64,000 nucleotides of DNA from Chloroflexota bacterium (GTDB lineage: Bacteria > Chloroflexota > Anaerolineae > UBA7937 > B3-Chlor). The position numbers were made by a program, and so were the translations under genes. Below, piece after piece: positions 2,460 to 19,020 of the stretch (within the stretch, counting starts at the first letter, position 1; each line of letters starts with the position of its first letter). The stretch spans positions 85,377 to 149,376 of the forward strand of contig JAUVXJ010000003.1 of assembly GCA_030603665.1 (NCBI GenBank), written 5' to 3'. Under the pieces are notes generated by a model. That model made no database searches. It was not told where the DNA came from and saw only the letters and a program-made list of their open reading frames with translations.

Positions 2460-2924
2460 TCACTTCAAGAAACCAGGTTGGGTCGAATCATGGCGATCGC
2501 TAGCTTCCGGGTCGTCTGTGAGAGGGCCCAGATACTTCTGCACGCCGCATCGGTCCCAGTCGCCAGCGGCACGGTGGGCGTTGATGTAATTGGTCGGCAT
2601 AGGATGACTGCCTACAACCACGGGAAGTCCCACATAATTCTCGATGTATTGGATGAAATCCTCCAAATAGGGGCAGGGTGGATATCCTGCCAGAAACCCC
2701 GATGCCAGGACGATCTCCTCCGCGCCATACTTCTTCAGCTCAGCCGGGGCAAACTCCAGGCGTTCGCCGGGACATCCTCCGCACGTGATGAACCCGACAA
2801 CCTCAAGAGGTTCGTCCTTCGGATACTTCTTGAAGGCGCCTGACCGCTCCTGAATAGCCATGAAGCACTTGCCGCCGGTGCACGTTCTATTCCTATCACA
2901 GATGATGATGCCGATCTTGCTCAT
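2460..2924 (-). CDS. CGGC-domain protein
   Basis: Contains the motif FITCGGCPGERLE and additional Cys pairs. Start chosen at MSKIGIIICDR, preceded by the SD AAGGAG; the longer ORF-track start lacks an SD. Confidence 0.7.
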   Translation of the reverse strand: MSKIGIIICDRNRTCTGGKCFMAIQERSGAFKKYPKDEPLEVVGFITCGGCPGERLEFAPAELKKYGAEEIVLASGFLAGYPPCPYLEDFIQYIENYVGLPVVVGSHPMPTNYINAHRAAGDWDRCGVQKYLGPLTDDPEASDRHDSTQPGFLK

Positions 2925-3712
2925 CGAAACTCTCCTTTGTGGCGTAAGTGTCCCGCAAGCCATCGCTTTGCCCGGGACGTGTCACCGTCTCGCTTCTCTG
3001 GAACCAAACATTGACGACGGACCCGTCTGGCCAAGACGGCCAGCACTGATCTTCGACCGCTACCGGCTATTGGCTCAGCCATCTGGCATACGCGGACCGG
3101 CAGGATTCATCGCTCAATCTCGTCTGGCACAGGCGTCGCCGACCCCAGCCCACTCGCTCCAAAGCTTAGCCGCATGATGGGCAGCGCAGGGGCCTGACTA
3201 CTCCCGGTGGCGAGGCCTCCGGCGGCCGGAGGGTAGTATATCATAGGTCAGCTCTCCTGGCAGCGCTGCTGCTCTCTGTCCCACCACCGATTGCGCACAC
3301 GGACCTCGCTCTGGTACAATGGGCATCGGGGGCCGTGCTGCTTTCCCATAGCCAAGCAGGCGTTTCCCCTGCAATTGATGGTGATCGAGATAGAGATTGA
3401 CTGCAGTGGCATATTGGAGGGGTGATTGCGGAGCAAGGAAAGAACCGTCAGCAGGTCGTCAACCAGCAGATTGGCAGAGTTGTCAAGCGTCTGAATACTG
3501 GCGTGAACCGAGGTCGCTGCCGCTCCCCGCTTAGCTCGTTGATCAAGGGCTACGATAGCCACCGAGCGGACGTTGCGCCAGGATCGGGAACAGCAGCAAG
3601 GGCTGATCAACAACATGGAAGACTAGTTGATGGAGCAAGGGGTTGTTGAAAGAGTTGCACTGGGAATGCGTGCATTGCCCCATAGCGCAAGAGCACGGGT
3701 GGGAGGACCACC

Positions 3713-4585
3713 ATGACCAAGATGGTTAGTCCTGCGATTGTCATCGGCTTGGAACACATCGGACAGAAGGTTCTGACCTGCGTGAAAGAGAATGTTTCTG
3801 ATACTCATGGCAGAGTACCAGATACCATACGGCTGCTTGATTTCGGCAGCAGGGGCGAGCATCCTGAGTGGGCAACTGCGGCTGAGCACGCCGAGGCAAG
3901 TGACGTGACCTTGGGACCAAAGGAGTTCATCTCCCCAGGTGGCACCATCGATGACGATGAAAGTAGACTAGCCAAGGGGGCCGGACAGAGCCCTCCTTTC
4001 TGGCGGACGGCTGACTTCCTTGGGCTCGCTAGTGGGCGGCCGAAAGCGACCAAGGCTATCCGGCAAGCTATCGTGGATGTGAAGAGTGCTGCGCAAGTCG
4101 AAGAGCCCTTGGAGATTCACATTGTGTGCTCTTTGGGCGGCGGGACAGGAAGTGGGATGCTCATCGACATTGCCCACATTGCACGTCAAGTTGCCGAAAG
4201 GGAGGCCGTACCGTCCAACATCCGGGCTTGGGTATTGCTGCAGGACATCTCGGAAGGCAGGATCAATGCTCAGCGGGTGTTGCCATGTGTATACGCTGCC
4301 ATGGGCGAACTCCAGCATTTCATGCAGGTCTTTGATCGGCAACATCCTGCCGATCACTCTGATGCGGAAGGTGGACCACGCCGGATCCACGACGGCAGCT
4401 ACGAGAGCAGACTGTTCGACGCCTGCTATTTGATAGACTTCAAGCGACCTTGTTTGTCGCCCGACCGGACAACACCCCAGAGACATATCTTGCCGACTGT
4501 TGCTCAGCTCATCACCGCCTTGCTGGATCCAGAAACCAGGAGTACTCTCAATGCCCCTTATCCAACGGTTGGCAACGGCCTATGA
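3713..4585 (+). CDS. tubulin/FtsZ-superfamily GTPase-domain protein (mini-tubulin; GTPase domain plus H7, no intermediate/C-terminal domain)
   Basis: The GGGTGSG tubulin signature sits in IHIVCSLGGGTGSGMLIDIAHI. A T3-like GAGQSPPFW motif is present. The N-terminus IVIGLEHIGQKVLTCVKENVSDTHG aligns to tubulin [26 protein letters not shown], but the glycine-rich T1 loop is degenerate. A strong SD (GGGAGGA) precedes ATG 3713. At 290 aa it is too short for a full tubulin or FtsZ. Confidence 0.6.
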   Translation: MTKMVSPAIVIGLEHIGQKVLTCVKENVSDTHGRVPDTIRLLDFGSRGEHPEWATAAEHAEASDVTLGPKEFISPGGTIDDDESRLAKGAGQSPPFWRTADFLGLASGRPKATKAIRQAIVDVKSAAQVEEPLEIHIVCSLGGGTGSGMLIDIAHIARQVAEREAVPSNIRAWVLLQDISEGRINAQRVLPCVYAAMGELQHFMQVFDRQHPADHSDAEGGPRRIHDGSYESRLFDACYLIDFKRPCLSPDRTTPQRHILPTVAQLITALLDPETRSTLNAPYPTVGNGL

Positions 4586-5108
4586 GGTGCCAGGCAGGGA
4601 GCACTGAAGGCTCTATACAGCAGCCTGGAAAACTCGTGTCGTATTGGGTAGTCAGTACTGAAGTCGCTCGCCGAGGCGGTGCGAGATAAGACCGAATCGG
4701 AGCGCGGGGCGCCGGCTCAGGCGTCTGTGCGCAAGCGGTGACCCAAGTGCGCTCTCGCACCCCAAGTTGGCAATGAGGGAGCACAAGGCAAGACACCCGG
4801 CCGATGCAGCTAGAGAGGCGATGGAGTGGACAAGGTAGTCGGAGCGGATGGAAGAAGGTGCAGACGACCACCAAGGCCCCGAATCAGCGCTGAAATCCCA
4901 GACGGGCGCACCGTGACCGCTCCGGCGCTGGAAGGAGAAACACAGGCCGATTCGCAAAGTAGAGGAACGATTGGGGACAAGAAGGGCACATTCTCGCGAG
5001 ACGCCTCGCCTGCGCTCGGTGACCAGATGATACCATGATTGCTGAGGAGGTGAGAACGAAGTGACGTGCGTTTGAGCAGGGCATCCTTGTGTAAACTCGG
5101 AGGGGAAT

Positions 5109-5690
5109 ATGGCCAATGGACAGCTGGTAGCTATGAGCGACGATGAACAGCTTGAATTGGCTTGCTGGCTCATCGAGAGACATGACCATCTCCGCGCGTC
5201 GACGGCAACTAGGGCAGCCATCGTGGTAAGCGCAGACGCTATTCTTTTTGCCGGGGCCGTGTTTCTGTTAGACAAATACCTATCATCAGTTACCCAGTAT
5301 CATCAGTTTGGGAGAGTAGTCTTCACAGTAGGCATTGGAGCCAATCTGACCCTTCTTGCCCTTTCCGTAGTGCTAGCTGCCAACGCGATTGCATTTGCCT
5401 GGAAGAAGACACGAACTACGGTCAATATCAGCAATCTGCCGCCACTGCTCTTCTTTCATCCTAGTGATACGATGAAGGCCTTCAACGACAAGGAGTTTGG
5501 GCGTTTCAGGCAGCACTTCCGAGCGGCCACCAAGGAACAGATGGTGACGTACGCCTTGGGTGAACTCTTGCAGATTACCATAGCACACAATATGCGCTAC
5601 CGTGCATTCCGATGGTCAATTCGCTTGCTCTTTGCAGCTACTATTCCAATGTCAATCTGCATTCTAATGCTCTTGTTCAGGAATCTGTAG
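5109..5690 (+). CDS. small 2-TM (plus C-terminal hydrophobic helix) membrane protein, possible SLATT-like effector
   Basis: 193 aa. Two TM helices (AAIVVSADAILFAGAVFLL; VVFTVGIGANLTLLALSVVLAANAIAF) are followed by a soluble region and a C-terminal hydrophobic helix. A GGAGG SD precedes the ATG. Confidence 0.5.
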   Translation: MANGQLVAMSDDEQLELACWLIERHDHLRASTATRAAIVVSADAILFAGAVFLLDKYLSSVTQYHQFGRVVFTVGIGANLTLLALSVVLAANAIAFAWKKTRTTVNISNLPPLLFFHPSDTMKAFNDKEFGRFRQHFRAATKEQMVTYALGELLQITIAHNMRYRAFRWSIRLLFAATIPMSICILMLLFRNL

Positions 5691-6310
5691 ACTCGAACGC
5701 GTCAGAGCGCCATTGATGATCCACATCTGACTCGGCGCTAGACAATACGCACAGAGAATGCCATACGTCGTAGGAAGGATGCTGAGCGCCCAAATTGCAC
5801 GGCGGAGCGGGAGGAGGCGAAGAGAGTCGTCATGGAGGCGTAGAATGGCTAGGCCGAAGTCCCTCGGGATCGAAATCTCGGCTTGTCGGACGATGGAAAC
5901 AGTATGATCACCTATCACGTGGACCCCTCCCATTCTATCCACACCCGTCTGAGCACCGCCTTCCTGCTTCAATCGAGGCATCTGACATTCGGCTGTGAGG
6001 ATTGAGAGATGGTTGGCCGTGTACGGGTCATGGCTCCGTTGGCAGATCCTGGGGCCTTGACGAGAGGGGCTCACCTGCAGTTTCAAATCGACAAGGATGG
6101 CACCGGCCGGGATTGCCGGTTTGATCCGCATAGAGATCTACGGGACAGGCGTTCAAGGTCGCTGTGGACAGGGGACAACGCCCCCCGGTGCCTGCCATGA
6201 AGGAGGAGGACCTTGATGAAAGAGATCGTTGCCTCAGTCATTTGGGTTGGAGCGCTTCTGGCCGCATGTGCAACGCCTGCTGATGCGTTGTAGGCAGACC
6301 GATTGCTCGG

Positions 6311-6339
6311 TTGACCTATCAGGCCACAGAGAGTATAAT
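6311..6339 (+). promoter_or_regulatory. promoter TTGACC-N17-TATAAT for the toxin-antitoxin operon
   Basis: Exact consensus-like hexamers with 17-nt spacing, ~37 nt upstream of the antitoxin ATG. Confidence 0.5.
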
Positions 6340-6375
6340 AGCCTTAAAGGACATAAAGGGTAGGAGCGCAGCACG

Positions 6376-6642
6376 ATGAGCACAACCAGCATCAGCGAAC
6401 TGAAGAGCGGCCTGTCAGAGTACCTGAACCGCGCGGCATATGGACAGGAGCGCATCATCGTTGCCAGCCGAGGCAAGCCCAAGGCGGCCGTGATCAGCAT
6501 AGAGGACTTGCGCCGCTTTGAGGAACTAGAGGACGCCCTGGCCGCCCACGAGGCGCTGGAGGCTTACGAGGCGGGAGAGACTACGCCCTGGGAAGAGGTC
6601 AAGGCAGAACTGGCCGAGGGCGCCGGTGACGTACCGGATTGA
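6376..6642 (+). CDS. Phd/YefM-family antitoxin
   Basis: 88 aa. N-terminus SISELKSGLSEYLNRAAYGQERIIVASRGKPKAAVISIEDLRRFEELED is typical of the Phd/YefM fold. It overlaps the toxin gene by 17 nt. Confidence 0.8.
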   Translation: MSTTSISELKSGLSEYLNRAAYGQERIIVASRGKPKAAVISIEDLRRFEELEDALAAHEALEAYEAGETTPWEEVKAELAEGAGDVPD

Positions 6643-6898
6643 GATAGAGCGCCGGGCACATAAGGCTCTTGGCCGTCTCCCCAAGCGAGACCGCGTTCGG
6701 GTGGTAGTTGCGACCGATGCCTTGGCTGAAGATCCGAGACCGGCGGGATGCGTGCCCGTACGAGCGGCTCCCAGGGGCACATACCGCATGCGCGTGGGTG
6801 GCTTTCGGATAGTCTATCTGGTTCTGGATGATGAGGAAGTGATCATCGTGGCCCGGGTGGCCAGGCGGAGCGAGACTACCTATCGGAAGCCGGGATAG
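6626..6898 (+). CDS. RelE/ParE-family toxin
   Basis: 90 aa: MTYRIEIERRAHKALGRLPKRDRVRV...GGFRIVYLVLDDEEVIIVARVARR. GTG start overlaps the antitoxin stop. Confidence 0.8.
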   Translation: MTYRIEIERRAHKALGRLPKRDRVRVVVATDALAEDPRPAGCVPVRAAPRGTYRMRVGGFRIVYLVLDDEEVIIVARVARRSETTYRKPG

Positions 6899-14244: not shown

Positions 14245-14668
14245 CCTTTTCCTTGCGGGAAGTGTGCTCGTTGTGATGGGCGCCCTCGCCCCTGTCGATT
14301 CGCGGGTCCTACTCTAGCGGAGCCATGGCCGCGACGGCGGGCAGGAAGAGCTGTTCATACAGTGTATCATGCTCATCTGGCGTGGAGACCAGGTACACAA
14401 AGTAGGCCTTGTCGCCATCTTCTGCCATCGCGAGGTCGGCCGCATTCCCCCCCGGTCTTTCAAACGAGTAGAAATCCCACGTGAAGTTGCCGACTTGCGC
14501 ACCACTGACCGGGTCCGGCGGCGGATCCAATCCCAGTTGCCCCATTATGGCGGCAAACAGCTCGGCAGCCGCACCCTGACTCGCCTCCAGGACGAAGTAG
14601 GTCGGGTCAAGCGCAGAACTGGCGCGCGCGAGATTTGCTGGCGCAAATTCCTCCCAGCCCACAGCGAC
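14245..14668 (-). pseudogene. duplicated 3'-terminal segment of the S33 hydrolase gene (C-terminal 117 codons plus ~65 nt downstream), ~97% identical to 16981-17404
   Basis: ORF 14309-14662 encodes ...GWEEFAPANLARASSALDPTYFVLEAS...LFLPAVAAMAPLE. This is nearly identical to the C-terminus of the 17044-19020 protein, and nucleotide homology extends past the stop codon. Confidence 0.7.
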
Positions 14669-14973
14669 TCTGGAGCCCCTAGGGCCCGTACTGGCACCCT
14701 AAGGGACGATGGCTCACTAAGGACACATCGGGCGATCTTTGCTTGCGTTCTGTAGAGGAAGCGCCTGACGTGTCTACCTTTCCGAGCATGCGGCTACCGG
14801 GATACTAGGCGTGTGAAGCGCCACTGGCCCGACGTTTTGTCGGGCCAGTGGTTCCCCTCGCACTCAGGTCAACAGTCGTGTTTACTGCTGTTGGCCTTTG
14901 TGGTGCACCATCTCTCCATGCAGACAGAAGATCCTGATTGCTCCTTGTCTTCTTTCCGTTCGGGTTATCCTTC

Positions 14974-15829: not shown

Positions 15830-16920
15830 TACCGGATTGACTTAAGTTGATGGTCTTACCCACTTTGCAGACAATGGGATTTCTATGTCAATATTCCCTT
15901 CCGCTTGTTCTATGATCCGATTCTATATGTAGCATATTCCAAGTTTCACGAAGAAAAATGGACAAGCATAGAATACTAAAAGAAGATCAATTCTCAGGTC
16001 TATCTAGCCAGTATTTGAAGGCTATTAAGCCGACTAATGCTCCTGGAATACCGATAATGATTAATAACCACCCGATCATTTGGAGGTACGAATATACCCA
16101 GTAGGTATAAGGTTGACTGCCAAAAGGGGCATAGTAATTACCGTCAAGAGCAATATAGATACAATACGCTATAAATAGAAAGGGTCCAGCCCCGCCGCCT
16201 GCATTTCTTGTCTTATGATCCTTCTTTTCTCGCTCGTTAAACCACCTCTTTTCGTCAGCTGGCAATCGATGCCACCACAAATACCCTCCTAAACCAAAGA
16301 ATATTCCTCCAGGCAACCCAACAAACAACAACTCCCATAGAATCAGCTGCAAGAAGAAGCCTACAATCCAATACAAGCTCCATTGATCGAACGTCGCGGT
16401 ACCATGATTTCCAATAGGAGAGGTTTGGATATGCCAAATCAACACGATAACCGCCACAATGCACAGAACGATTGCAGCAGCTATCGCGAGAATAAATGCT
16501 TTCCAATGCTCTTTGATTCTCCCCTTCCAGTTTGTCTCAACACCATCTTCTTGGTCTTTTTCCATAGTTCCTTAACACCCCTCTTTCTGCTTGATTCTGT
16601 TCTTACATTTCAATACAGATGAGTGGTTTTGTCAACTGCTGCAGTGAACCAATTCCAGGATTTCATTTCGGGTATTCTAGCACCTTTCAACAGAAGCCAC
16701 AACGCAAGCAGTATTTCCGCAATACCGGCAACCGCGGCACCCGGGGAAGTTATCGCTTTGAAGTAAGGAGTTACGTAACTTCGCAGGAAATCCCTTGTAT
16801 TCGATGACACCTAGTTCTTTAGAGAACAGGCAAATCGTCAGTGCCAAACCGTCCCTCTACAAGTTTGCCATTTACTATGCGATAGATGTCAACAGCCATA
16901 TTTGTCATCTTCTTGCCAGT
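15830..16920. other. low-GC (~40%) inserted segment, probably horizontally acquired, carrying one intact membrane-protein gene and gene remnants
   Basis: There is a sharp drop in GC relative to the ~60% flanks. The segment lies between hydrolase 3'-end copies. Confidence 0.45.
15987..16565 (-). CDS. hypothetical polytopic membrane protein (Trp/Tyr-rich), low-GC gene
   Basis: 192 aa with 4-5 hydrophobic helices. AT-rich codon usage is atypical for the window. Confidence 0.45.
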   Translation of the reverse strand: MEKDQEDGVETNWKGRIKEHWKAFILAIAAAIVLCIVAVIVLIWHIQTSPIGNHGTATFDQWSLYWIVGFFLQLILWELLFVGLPGGIFFGLGGYLWWHRLPADEKRWFNEREKKDHKTRNAGGGAGPFLFIAYCIYIALDGNYYAPFGSQPYTYWVYSYLQMIGWLLIIIGIPGALVGLIAFKYWLDRPEN

Positions 16921-17016
16921 AGGGGCTAGTCCATGAAATTCGCCTGCATGGGTCCCCGTATAGGTAGGGCGAACCCACACCTTATCCTTGCGTGAAGCGT
17001 GCGCGTTGTCATGCAC
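16819..17016 (-). pseudogene. C-terminal fragment of a SnoaL-like/ester-cyclase-type protein
   Basis: ...YTGTHAGEFHGLAPTGKKMTNMAVDIYRIVNGKLVEG matches the conserved C-terminal HTGEFMGIxPTGKKVxxxGIDIFRIENGKI block of that family. Only ~65 codons remain. Confidence 0.35.
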
Positions 17017-17043
17017 GCCCTCGCCCCTGTCGATTCGCGGGCC

Positions 17044-19020
17044 CTACTCCAGCGGAGCCATGGCCGCGACGGCGGGCAGGAAGAGCTGTTCATACAGCGT
17101 ATCACGCTCATCTGGCGTGGAGACGAGGTACACAAAGTAGGCCTTGTCGCCATCTTCTGCCAGCGCGAGATCGGCCGGATTCCCCCCCGGTCTTTCAAAC
17201 GAGTAGAAATCCCACGTGAAGTTGCCGACCTGCGCACTACTGACCGGGTCCGGCGGCGGATCCAATCCCAGTTGCCCCATTATGGCGGCAAACAGCTCGG
17301 CAGCCGCACCCGGACTCGCCTCCAGAACGAAGTAGGTCGGGTCAAGCGCAGAACTAGCGCGAGAGAGATTTGCTGGCGCAAGTTCCTCCCAGCCTACAGG
17401 GACGACGCCACTGAAGCCGCGCTCCTCGTCGGTGAAAGGTTCCAGCACCAACTCCGGCGCTTCGCCTGGCACATCGAAGACGACGCCGGGCATCTCCGCG
17501 ACGCACGCTGCGTCGGGCGCCTGGGTGGGGTCGTCGAAGAAGTCGCCGATGATGCTCCGGGCGCACTCAGTGGCACCAAGAACGTCATGGCCAACGCCGG
17601 GGAATTCGAAGAAGTAGCTGTTGCTCAGGTACCCGGCGACCAGTTGGCCATACTCCGGAGGTGTGACCGGGTCGAATTCGCCCTCCAATATCAAGGTAGG
17701 GATGTCGCTGACCAAGGGCTCCTTGACCCACGGGTCGGCCTCCTCGACCGGCCAGTTCTCACAGATGCCGAATATGCCGTATTCGATTTCGAACTCGGGG
17801 TCGACGCTGCTTGCCAGTTGCCTGGGCAATGCTGCTCTGACATTCAACAGATCCTCCGGCGTCCGGCCGATGAGGTCATCGGTGCAGAGCACGGACATCG
17901 TCATCCCCCGGGTCGTAAGGTCAAGGAGCAGCAGTCTGGTGCTGCTCAGTTGCGTCATGAGTTCATAGTCCCCATTGTACACATCGTAGATCGCCTGCGG
18001 CAGAACAGGGATGATCTGAGTAATGTAGAGGAAGGTCACCAGGTTGCCCAAGACCGCATCCCCGGTCAGTACGGCATCGTAGCTCTGGCCTTCTAGAGGG
18101 TTGGTGATGGTGATGGGAACAGGCTCCTCGTTCAGCTGGTCGATGGTATCGAAGAGCACGTCCTGGAGATCGGGGTACGCGCTGTTGCAGGCTTCGTCGG
18201 CCGCGCAGGCGTCAAGCATGCGCATGACGGCGTTGGCGGTGGTCGTCGATACAAAGATGCTCTTCTCCAGTGGCAGTACCGAGTTGATCGCCACGCTGCG
18301 TATGTCTTCCGGGTGGTCGCGCATGGTGGCCTGCGCCAGCAACGAGCCGTAAGACCCTCCGAACAGGTTGACCTGGTCGTAGCCCAGTGCGCTAGAGATG
18401 GCATTCACATCGGCGGCGTTCTCGATAGTATTGTAGGCCGACAGGTTGAATCCCTCACTCACCAGGCGATCACGGCAGGCCATCAGGGCGTCGAACACCG
18501 TTTCAACACCAACGTCAGGGTCTGGCTCATCGAGGATGTCATACATCGCCTCCAAGAACTCCGGGCACTCCAGCGCTGGTTCCGAGAGGCCCGTGCCGCG
18601 CTGATCGAAGATGATTAGGTCGCGATTAGGGTGAATGGGAGCAAGGACTTGCGCAAGGGCAAACGCGTTGTGCACGGTCTTCTCGCCGGGCCCGCCACTC
18701 AGCACAATCACCGGGTCGGGCTGGTGCTCATCGCTCTCGTCCTTAACTACGGCCACGGCCAGCTTGATCGTGGGCCCGTCAGGGTCAGTATGATCCTCGG
18801 GCACGATGACGAAGCCGCACTCGACCGGGGCACCTTCGGGGACGTCAAAGGGGCACGGGCCCTCCTCAAACGTGGCTACCGGTTCCGCGGTCGGCTGGAC
18901 GGTGGGAGTCGGCTCGACCGCTGGCGTCGCGGTCGGTTCGGGGGCACTCGTGGTGGCTCCGCCGCAGGCGGAAGCCAGCAACACGACGACTAGCAGGGCA
19001 AGTAGTACGTTTTTGATCTT
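17044..19020 (-). CDS. secreted alpha/beta-hydrolase, TAP-like tripeptidyl/prolyl aminopeptidase (S33), lipoprotein
   Basis: The LFGGSYGS nucleophile elbow, its length and the TAP-like C-terminal region support the call. N-terminus KIKNVLLALLVVVLLASACGG is a lipoprotein signal. The exact start codon is unclear (the ORF track starts at 18984 on GTG; the signal peptide extends upstream to ~19020). Confidence 0.7.
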   Translation of the reverse strand, partial: KIKNVLLALLVVVLLASACGGATTSAPEPTATPAVEPTPTVQPTAEPVATFEEGPCPFDVPEGAPVECGFVIVPEDHTDPDGPTIKLAVAVVKDESDEHQPDPVIVLSGGPGEKTVHNAFALAQVLAPIHPNRDLIIFDQRGTGLSEPALECPEFLEAMYDILDEPDPDVGVETVFDALMACRDRLVSEGFNLSAYNTIENAADVNAISSALGYDQVNLFGGSYGSLLAQATMRDHPEDIRSVAINSVLPLEKSIFVSTTTANAVMRMLDACAADEACNSAYPDLQDVLFDTIDQLNEEPVPITITNPLEGQSYDAVLTGDAVLGNLVTFLYITQIIPVLPQAIYDVYNGDYELMTQLSSTRLLLLDLTTRGMTMSVLCTDDLIGRTPEDLLNVRAALPRQLASSVDPEFEIEYGIFGICENWPVEEADPWVKEPLVSDIPTLILEGEFDPVTPPEYGQLVAGYLSNSYFFEFPGVGHDVLGATECARSIIGDFFDDPTQAPDAACVAEMPGVVFDVPGEAPELVLEPFTDEERGFSGVVPVGWEELAPANLSRASSALDPTYFVLEASPGAAAELFAAIMGQLGLDPPPDPVSSAQVGNFTWDFYSFERPGGNPADLALAEDGDKAYFVYLVSTPDERDTLYEQLFLPAVAAMAPLE

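Follow-up and report, generated by a model that had tools for sequence, protein, structure and literature searches.

The window, by which we mean the whole 64,000-nucleotide stretch of DNA analysed here, contains a 290-aa ORF with a tubulin-type signature and, downstream of it, a gene encoding a 193-aa 2TM membrane protein. A sequence-only reading proposed that the two genes constitute a distinct mini-tubulin module, and the question raised by this locus is whether they belong together as a system. We consider it most probable (about 0.78) that the 290-aa ORF represents what is left of the 5′ part of an FtsZl1-type gene, that the PycTM-like gene beside it is separate, intact and orphan, and that no new two-gene system is present. 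The features on which this reading is based are listed in Table 1.

Table 1. Features of the tubulin-like/2TM locus (positions in the window)
Feature	Position	Strand	Remarks
Shine-Dalgarno-like GGGAGGA	3701-3707	+	5 nt 5′ of the ATG of the tubulin-like ORF; read from sequence
290-aa tubulin-like ORF	3713-4585	+	ATG start; probable N-terminal remnant of an FtsZl1 / Pfam Tubulin_2 gene, normally ~1,200 aa
Degenerate T1 (phosphate-binding glycine) loop	3746-3763	+	GLEHIG vs family GLGGTG
Site of in-frame 87-bp (29-codon) deletion vs ortholog	3944-3947	+	Pairwise DNA alignment, family consensus
T3-like GAGQ motif	3977-3988	+	Residues 89-92; kept in the window ORF
T4 tubulin/FtsZ signature GGGTGSG	4136-4156	+	Within SLGGGTGSGM, residues 140-149
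Premature TGA stop inside conserved N-terminal domain	4583-4585	+	Common to window and orthologous locus
In-frame relic of ancestral frame past the stop, GARQGALKALYSSL	4586-4627	+	14 codons; tblastn and hmmsearch
Spacer without recognisable homology or RNA family	4628-5108	.	Diverges at neutral rate
Shine-Dalgarno-like GGAGGGG	5099-5105	+	5′ of the 2TM gene; identical in the orthologous locus L001
193-aa membrane protein, PycTM / CBASS-2TM effector-like, PF18967-related	5109-5690	+	Intact; strong purifying selection
Phd/YefM antitoxin	6376-6642		Pfam
ParE toxin	6626-6898		Pfam

Family assignment of the 290-aa ORF

The ORFs and motifs described earlier (GGGTGSG, GAGQ and a degenerate T1 loop) are all present at the places given for them. 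By its sequence, the 290-aa ORF is a member of the FtsZl1/Tubulin_2 family, and the comparison with FtsZl1 that had been proposed was borne out: the Pfam model Tubulin_2 (PF13809) matches at 80.8 bits (cutoff 27, E = 1.5e-22), the match spanning only profile positions 99-271 of 356, and an exhaustive phmmer search with the ORF returned 503 matches. PF00091 reaches 18.7 bits, under its cutoff of 33, and neither FtsZ_C nor Tubulin_C was matched in the Pfam scan. No solved-structure relative of the family was found when the family profile was compared with PDB sequences.

The ORF has the tubulin/FtsZ nucleotide-binding fold, with nucleotide-binding loops that are not all intact, since T3 and T4 are present and T1 is lost. 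The T1 loop is degenerate because IVIGLEHIGQKVL at the N-terminus of the ORF replaces the FtsZl1 family consensus IIIGLGGTGQWVL. The T1 loop of the orthologous metagenomic locus L001 also departs from the family motif, reading GLGYTG, and there the T3 motif is degenerate as well (GIGH vs GAGQ). The 87-bp deletion has removed the family-conserved segment HIxSWLQAxxYL from the window ORF. At T4, residues G143, G144, T145, G146 and G148 are invariant columns of the FtsZl1 family alignment. The GGGTGSG motif had been taken as a sign of eukaryote- or archaeal-type tubulin, for which it is not diagnostic; the FtsZl1 consensus at the same place is S-L-A-G-G-T-G-S-G-M.

A nonsense codon within the conserved domain

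Homologs of the 290-aa ORF are essentially always long. Most of the best 150 of the 503 phmmer matches have 1,100-1,250 aa or more, and ORFs of 1,100-1,260 aa are found in about 70 of the 80 FtsZl1 genome loci, the short ORFs among these loci being contig ends or sporadic breaks. The window ORF aligns within the N-terminal ~320 residues of the long homologs (residues ~105-320). In the full-length homolog P0007, Tubulin_2 spans residues 9-362, and the end of the window ORF corresponds in the tblastn alignment to about residue 320 of that protein. The ORF had been described as stopping right after helix H7. Its end is in fact a nonsense codon within the conserved domain, with homology continuing in frame: the window reads GNGL, a stop and GARQGALKALYSSL where the family has GKALYSSLGTYTYILPVED, and the homology ends after those 14 codons. 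The KALYSSL past the stop matches the family-conserved GKALYSSLGTYTYILPVED with identical spacing, 23 positions after LLDPET. When the long homologs P0006, P0007, P0009 and P0010 were used in tblastn, window positions 3713-4627 were aligned, 42 nt beyond the TGA, and the alignment of long homologs likewise crosses the TGA in L001. An hmmsearch with the family profile placed the translation AQLITALLDPETRSTLNAPYPTVGNGLXGARQGALKALYSSL (X marking the stop) against profile positions 295-336 without a gap. Thus the end of the 290-aa ORF is not a natural domain boundary, because in-frame homology runs on past its stop.

The TGA occupies the identical alignment column in L001 and in the window. The shared stop is a real sequence feature, since it recurs in a JGI contig and in a Logan assembly as well as in the window, all three assembled independently. 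A much longer product made by decoding of the TGA is unlikely, since a TAG comes 21 codons later.

FtsZl1 genes form operons with a vWA-domain gene in the majority of family members (PMC2875224), and vWA homologs lie upstream of FtsZl1 in three of the loci studied here (L003, L005 and L006). No tblastn match to the vWA partner was found in 2900-6500 of the window. When 2964-3712, 4628-5108 and 5691-6375 were searched with tblastn and hmmsearch --max, no significant trace emerged of the ~860 aa missing from the FtsZl1 C-terminus, of the vWA partner or of any further member of the operon. tblastn did place residues 487-515 of P0006 weakly at 4902-5006 (E = 0.35; 0.011 in L001), a match that the profile search did not confirm and that was discarded. 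No locus was found that could represent an intermediate, with FtsZl1 at full length upstream of the 2TM gene, so that either the nonsense mutation or the deletion may have come first.

In sum, a TGA nonsense codon breaks the FtsZl1 frame inside its conserved N-terminal tubulin-like domain, 14 codons of the old frame can still be read, and the other ~860 codons have disappeared together with the operon partners. The remnant has kept the T4 signature, whereas its T1 glycine loop is lost and a conserved segment of 29 residues is missing. It would be very unlikely to bind GTP or to form filaments in the usual way.

Residual constraint on the probable remnant

The remnant ORF is 74.6% identical to L001 at the DNA level, the same as flanking non-coding DNA (72-75%). 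Because the TGA is common to both lineages, all of the measured divergence accrued after the truncation. In this single comparison, between the window and one orthologous metagenomic locus, the NG86 dN/dS of the remnant is 0.46, whereas the simulated neutral mean is 0.82 (P about 0.0005), and around T4 it is 0.30; two off-frames give values of 1.0-1.2. Under neutrality 3.6 new stops would be expected in the remnant, and none was seen (P(none) = 0.02). The start codon, the ribosome-binding site (a GAGGA stands in L001 at the same place as the GGGAGGA of the window) and the open frame have been kept in both lineages. Coding on the minus strand or in an off-frame was considered as a source of the constraint and rejected, the off-frames showing dN/dS of about 1.0-1.5; the single low off-frame value, 0.53, belongs to the antisense frame whose wobble positions coincide with those of the sense frame.

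The preserved frame and the dN/dS below neutral fit a protein that is still used and are unexpected of a long-dead pseudogene, and the remnant may still be expressed. Since the lineages split, its nonsynonymous changes have accumulated about half as fast as under neutrality. Because the start, the ribosome-binding site and the frame have been kept and the nonsynonymous rate is slow, the remnant may be made as a GTPase-inactive fragment, or it has lost its function only recently.

The 193-aa 2TM gene

The earlier description of the second protein as 2TM and effector-like is upheld by PADLOC, whose CBASS 2TM effector and PycTM models match near full length (E = 5e-9 and 1e-8, respectively; residues 12-187 for PycTM). 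Homologs at 33-48% BLASTP identity carry PF18967 in precomputed annotation, and one relative, P0158, reached 21.8 bits on rescan for this model, under the cutoff of 27.2; the 193-aa protein itself has no Pfam match to PF18967. The suggestion of a SLATT-type effector was not sustained, as none of the Pfam models SLATT_1-5 and DUF4231 matched the protein even at E ≤ 5. In the AlphaFold2 model the protein is entirely helical, its three long helices (H11-59, H66-98 and H142-192) being largely hydrophobic, and Foldseek against the PDB gave only non-specific helical-bundle matches (E ≥ 0.06). A 2TM profile scan found no relatives in the genome_contigs set. The protein shares 84% amino-acid identity with its ortholog, with a dN/dS of 0.24.

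Pycsar consists of an adjacent pyrimidine cyclase, PycC (a class III cyclase), and a PycTM-type effector (PMC11224242). Neither a CD-NTase nor a class III cyclase stands beside the 193-aa gene among the neighbours scanned (the tubulin remnant, the Phd/ParE pair, the CGGC-domain protein, the lactate permease and the B3_4-domain protein). The closest 2TM relatives mostly adjoin SIS, HAD, Sir2, cyclophilin, pentapeptide or Rce1-like genes and no class III cyclase. By analogy with the family, the 193-aa protein would sit in the inner membrane and disturb that membrane on receiving a trigger. The locus itself appears to contain no cyclase that would make the trigger, and the 2TM relatives occur in varied contexts that lack a class III cyclase. 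A cyclase, or an intact vWA-FtsZl1 operon, may lie elsewhere on the 413-kb contig or in the rest of the genome.

Neighbourhood and co-occurrence of the two genes

The locus is indeed gene-poor and adjoins a toxin-antitoxin pair, as described earlier. No conserved ORF is present in 2964-3712, 4586-5108 or 5691-6375, and the further neighbours are a CGGC-domain protein, a lactate permease, a B3_4-domain protein and a 789-aa ORF. A minus-strand ORF at 3248-3616, with a weak Pfam Pepco match (18.9 bits, under the cutoff of 27), was rejected as a gene, its frame being broken in L001 in all three phases. The spacer between the two genes is of near-equal length in both loci (522-523 bp), and the intergenic stretch 4586-5108 is 75% identical to that of L001, the same as upstream non-coding DNA. 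It contains no terminator-like site. There was no Rfam match at E ≤ 1 in 2900-6500, nor at gathering thresholds in the whole window, and no tRNA was found. The search for mobile-element signatures gave no direct repeats and a single weak 18-nt inverted pair; no plasmid similarity was detected, and viral contigs held no relatives of the 290-aa or the 193-aa protein.

The tubulin-like/2TM pairing was found only in the window and in L001, which shares the stop, the gene order and the 2TM neighbour with the window at about 75% DNA identity, and in none of the 99 other loci examined. No 2TM homolog lies within ±10 kb of FtsZl1 in any of the 80 genome loci, and no tubulin-like ORF occurs in the 19 loci holding 2TM relatives. 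As the sole second example is an orthologous locus, the pair represents one evolutionary event: the two genes adjoin by common descent in two related genomes and are not a recurrent module. Two orthologous loci are too few for the conserved gene order and spacer length to tell function apart from common ancestry. The idea of a distinct mini-tubulin module accordingly fails the refutation test named when it was put forward, because homologs are long, this copy is evidently truncated and the two genes do not co-occur independently. The other suggestion made at that time, a decaying gene pair, holds for the first gene, a remnant that is still measurably constrained, but not for the second, which is intact.

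Alternative explanations

The remnant might be fully dead, its 290-aa frame being open by chance and the low dN/dS reflecting functional time before a recent inactivation. The premature stop with read-through homology, the destroyed T1 loop, the T3 motif degenerate in the ortholog, the 29-codon deletion and a DNA identity no higher than that of the flanks all agree with this, and the neutral probability of no new stop is small but not negligible. The truncation is, however, older than the split of the two lineages, and dN/dS since then is well below both the off-frames and the neutral simulation, which leaves this explanation possible but doubtful. At the other extreme, the same low dN/dS, lack of new stops and conserved ATG and ribosome-binding site could be seen as signs of a domesticated mini-FtsZl1, a GTPase-dead tubulin-like domain co-opted as sensor or regulator of the PycTM-like effector in a lineage-specific conflict or membrane-remodelling module, especially as the neighbour is of effector type, the toxin-antitoxin pair adjoins, and the pair and its spacer length have been kept in a second lineage at ~75% DNA identity. 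Against it stand the single orthologous example, the missing pairing elsewhere, the end at a nonsense codon with homology beyond, the decay of different nucleotide-binding motifs in each lineage, the neutrally evolving 523-bp spacer and the other neighbours of 2TM relatives, and we regard it as quite improbable.

The 193-aa protein might instead be the surviving effector of a degraded Pycsar or CBASS operon, the cyclase having been lost or displaced by the rearrangement that truncated FtsZl1. Its near full-length effector matches would agree with such an origin, as would the non-coding stretches of unknown origin that flank its gene and the relative L088, whose downstream neighbour, a protein of 353 aa, has weak CD-NTase-like matches (PADLOC cyclase E = 2e-3). 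No cyclase relic is detectable, however, the closest relatives mostly keep other company, and the dN/dS of 0.24 speaks for a protein that does its work with no cyclase next to it; such an origin is unlikely. It is highly improbable that a GTPase-dead FtsZl1 fragment, retained by selection in a small lineage whose nearest relatives found are Chloroflexota MAGs, acts with the PycTM-like protein, as scaffold, decoy sensor or antitoxin-like brake, in a cyclase-less module born from gene decay.

Comparison with known systems

If the FtsZl1-remnant reading is correct, a far larger FtsZl1 gene can leave behind a stump that looks like a well-formed ORF and bears a textbook tubulin signature. Comparison with full-length relatives beyond the stop codon settles whether an ORF is such a stump, and the value of the case is mostly one of annotation hygiene. 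The constraint on the FtsZl1 stump also makes it a possible case of a truncated gene whose remaining fragment has been retained. The 193-aa gene is of a known type and lies beside a gene remnant; it draws attention to a PF18967 (PycTM-like) subfamily whose members have no class III cyclase and frequently adjoin SIS and HAD genes, and cautions against calling all PycTM-like proteins defence effectors.

SLATT and DUF4231 2TM effectors, reportedly described by Burroughs et al. in 2015, resemble the 193-aa protein in broad concept, as small effector-type membrane proteins with two TM segments, and differ in that none of their Pfam models matches it. With PycTM and CBASS 2TM effectors (PF18967; PADLOC PDLC02364 and PDLC00700) it shares a similar size (~160-200 aa) and long hydrophobic helices, whereas its gene lacks an adjacent pyrimidine cyclase or CD-NTase and its relatives occur in heterogeneous contexts that are mostly not defence-locus-like. 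Like canonical FtsZ, tubulin, TubZ and BtubAB, the 290-aa ORF has the GTPase-domain fold at its N-terminus and a GGGTG[ST]G signature. Unlike them it has neither the intermediate nor the C-terminal domain, and the T7 synergy loop is missing too; even intact FtsZl1 proteins lack these parts or have them in unrecognisable form (PMC2875224). The closest likeness is to the FtsZl1 family itself (Makarova & Koonin 2010, Biol Direct 5:33; Pfam PF13809 Tubulin_2). The ORF differs from its members in having 290 rather than ~1,200 aa, no long C-terminal (coiled-coil) region, a destroyed T1 loop, 29 residues deleted and neither the vWA partner nor other operon genes, and yet it is 39-43% identical to the N-terminal domains of full-length members, and shares their T3 and T4 motifs and family-specific inserts, the nearest genomic relatives found being in Thermoflexales and Chloroflexaceae MAGs.

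The 290-aa ORF is a truncated FtsZl1 gene

Both ORFs proposed in the sequence-only reading, one for a 290-aa tubulin-like protein and one for a 193-aa 2TM membrane protein, were confirmed in place, each with a Shine-Dalgarno-like motif 5′ of it. The 290-aa ORF carries the nucleotide-binding loop motifs SLGGGTGSGM (T4) and GAGQ (T3) and the N-terminal IVIGLEHIGQKVL. It matches Pfam Tubulin_2 (PF13809; E 1.5e-22, 80.8 bits, cutoff 27) over profile positions 99-271 of 356 only, and is sub-threshold against the canonical Tubulin/FtsZ model PF00091 (18.7 bits, cutoff 33). Given the Tubulin_2 assignment and an AlphaFold2 model of moderate quality (13 sequences; pLDDT 55, pTM 0.63), the tubulin fold that had been claimed is correct. 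An exhaustive phmmer search found 503 relatives; the best 150 of these are mostly 1,100-1,250 aa long, some up to 2,300 aa, and the query maps onto residues ~105-320 of these proteins. The top matches are 40-43% identical (e.g., P0007, 1,246 aa, with the Pfam domain at residues 9-362; P0009, 1,250 aa; P0010, 1,211 aa), and the nearest relatives come from Thermoflexales and Chloroflexaceae MAGs. These long proteins belong to FtsZl1, the family of Makarova and Koonin, whose members typically adjoin a vWA-domain gene (PMC2875224), and were treated in later work as a divergent Tubulin_2 “FtsZ-like” group (PMC9871819). The closest full-length relatives have a homologous ~880-1,010-aa gene directly upstream, which carries VWA_2 in locus L006 and shows similarity across the other loci (E 1e-52). 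Among 80 loci from species-representative genomes, the domain-bearing ORF is 1,100-1,260 aa in about 70; the short versions either run into a contig end or are sporadically broken.

The 290-aa ORF is a truncation of such a gene (hereafter the stump), and with long homologs and a truncated copy the suggested class of mini-tubulins does not stand. By tblastn, four long homologs align in one frame to 3713-4627, which is 42 nt beyond the TGA at 4583-4585, and positions 295-336 of the family profile align ungapped to AQLITALLDPETRSTLNAPYPTVGNGL[TGA]GARQGALKALYSSL. Past the stop, a run of seven residues (KALYSSL) coincides with the family’s conserved GKALYSSLGTYTYILPVED, at an identical 23-position spacing from LLDPET. 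No homology to the remaining ~860 residues, the vWA protein or other operon proteins was found past 4627. The T1 loop has changed from the family’s GLGGTG to GLEHIG, and an in-frame 87-bp deletion has taken out the family-conserved HIxSWLQAxxYL, still present in the orthologous copy. The stump is presumably inactive as a GTPase.

Directly downstream of the first Tubulin_2 gene, the closest loci with full-length FtsZl1 encode another, longer paralog (1,300-2,190 aa), whose tubulin-like domain is internal. In the homolog P0008 (1,745 aa), the domain is fused to a region with a weak match to STAND-type NTPases.

An orthologous locus and selection on the stump

The sole close relative of the stump, P0002 (319 aa, 54% identical), was found on a 2.9-kb JGI contig and in an independent Logan assembly. 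Its locus (L001) has the same order as the window: stump, 522-bp spacer, 193-aa protein (84% identical) and Phd antitoxin. The DNA of the two aligns end to end over 3225-5715 with the TGA in the same column; therefore, the loci are orthologous and the truncation is older than the split of the two lineages. At the DNA level the two loci are 72% identical upstream; the figure is 74.6% for the stump, 74.7% for the spacer and 87% for the 2TM gene. Decay has taken another course in the ortholog (T1 GLGYTG, T3 GIGH, T4 SGGTGTG).

Between these two orthologous sequences, on which the selection analysis rests, the stump has a Nei-Gojobori dN/dS of 0.46 (0.30 around T4), compared with 1.0-1.2 in its two off-frames and 0.24 in the 2TM gene. 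Since this estimator is crude, it was calibrated by simulation, in which the observed number of substitutions was placed at random with the spectrum of flanking non-coding DNA. The null dN/dS has a mean of 0.82 and a 2.5% quantile of 0.575, and a fraction of 0.0005 of simulations reach the observed value or lower; 3.6 new stop codons are expected (P = 0.02 for none). Thus, judged from two sequences, the stump has been under moderate constraint since truncation. It would either still be expressed or have been released from selection only recently.

As the Phd antitoxin adjoins the 2TM gene in L001 too, the block of stump, 2TM gene and toxin-antitoxin pair is syntenic. In the window, ~660 bp without counterpart in L001 separate the 2TM gene from the Phd gene, which in L001 follows after only about 110 bp; searches of this segment for conserved ORFs, repeats and RNA families came up empty. 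A strong sigma-70-like promoter match (11/12) lies 5′ of the Phd gene. Upstream of the stump are a CGGC-domain gene and a lactate permease, both on the minus strand. A 122-aa ORF matches Pfam Pepco only weakly and below threshold (E 0.002); it is probably spurious, because its frame is broken in the ortholog. Elsewhere in the window, ~300 bp is duplicated, with near-identical translations in two plus-strand ORFs and with minus-strand counterparts. The segment between the copies is of low GC (0.45 vs about 0.60 elsewhere), and the whole looks like an insertion or partial gene duplication.

Features of the window and of related loci (L-numbers)
Feature	Locus	Position	Strand	Remark
122-aa ORF	window	3248-3616	-	
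290-aa ORF (stump)	window	3713-4585	+	
193-aa ORF (2TM gene)	window	5109-5690	+	
Segment before Phd	window	5715-6375		
Promoter match	window	6311-6339		
Phd/YefM-ParE type II pair	window	6376-6898		intact, 17-nt overlap; downstream of 2TM gene
Duplicate copies	window	14309-14755; 16999-17330		
ORFs with duplicate	window	14369-14755; 16999-18096	+	
117-aa ORF	window	14309-14662	-	duplicate counterpart
192-aa multi-TM ORF	window	15987-16565	-	in low-GC segment
646-aa ORF	window	17044-18984	-	duplicate counterpart at C-terminus
Downstream Tubulin_2 paralog	L007	13418-17953		
Downstream Tubulin_2 paralog	L008	13764-18341		
Downstream Tubulin_2 paralog	L010	13551-17762		
Downstream Tubulin_2 paralog	L011	7533-11744		
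Downstream Tubulin_2 paralog	L013	6277-10251		
Downstream Tubulin_2 paralog	L017	13953-20513		
Neighbours of 2TM relative	L087	7428-9199		SIS and HAD genes
Neighbours of 2TM relative	L088	4601-7012		HAD gene
Neighbour of 2TM relative	L088			353-aa protein, weakly CD-NTase-like
Neighbour of 2TM relative	L090			pentapeptide-repeat protein
Neighbour of 2TM relative	L096			Rce1-like protein
Neighbours of 2TM relative	L098			Sir2, cyclophilin
Neighbour of 2TM relative	L099	5845-10558		large SIS-domain fusion

The pairing and the 2TM protein

A relative of the 2TM protein occurs in none of the 80 FtsZl1 loci (±10 kb; narrow and broader profile), and a tubulin-like ORF in none of the 19 loci holding 2TM relatives. 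One evolutionary event thus accounts for every known instance of the pairing, and, by the refuting condition set in the sequence-only reading, the two-gene system that had been proposed does not hold. Viral contigs gave no relatives of either protein, and a plasmid search with the locus DNA found no match. The evidence best supports the view that an FtsZl1 gene stump lies 5′ of a PycTM-like membrane protein that is intact and independently constrained. This stump may still be retained in expressed form; that it is a domesticated, GTPase-dead fragment working with the 2TM protein is quite improbable. Nothing beyond inherited adjacency ties it functionally to the 2TM gene.

The effector-like character attributed to the 193-aa protein holds: it matches the PADLOC models of the CBASS 2TM effector (PDLC00700; 5e-9, residues 13-190) and of PycTM (PDLC02364; 1e-8). 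A profile search found relatives with Pfam PF18967 (PycTM) at 33-48% BLASTP identity; in a Pfam scan the protein itself matched neither PF18967 nor the suggested SLATT/DUF4231. AlphaFold2 predicts it as entirely helical (pLDDT 76), the long helices spanning 11-59, 66-98 and 142-192; the model has no meaningful PDB match. The gene neighbours of its relatives vary among loci. SIS-domain and HAD-hydrolase genes recur in L087, L088 and L099, resembling a gmhA/gmhB-like sugar-phosphate context from which class III cyclase is absent; this suggests a PF18967 branch that is independent of cyclase and possibly non-defence. Pycsar systems pair the TM effector with a pyrimidine cyclase (PMC11224242); the 2TM gene in the window has no cyclase nearby.
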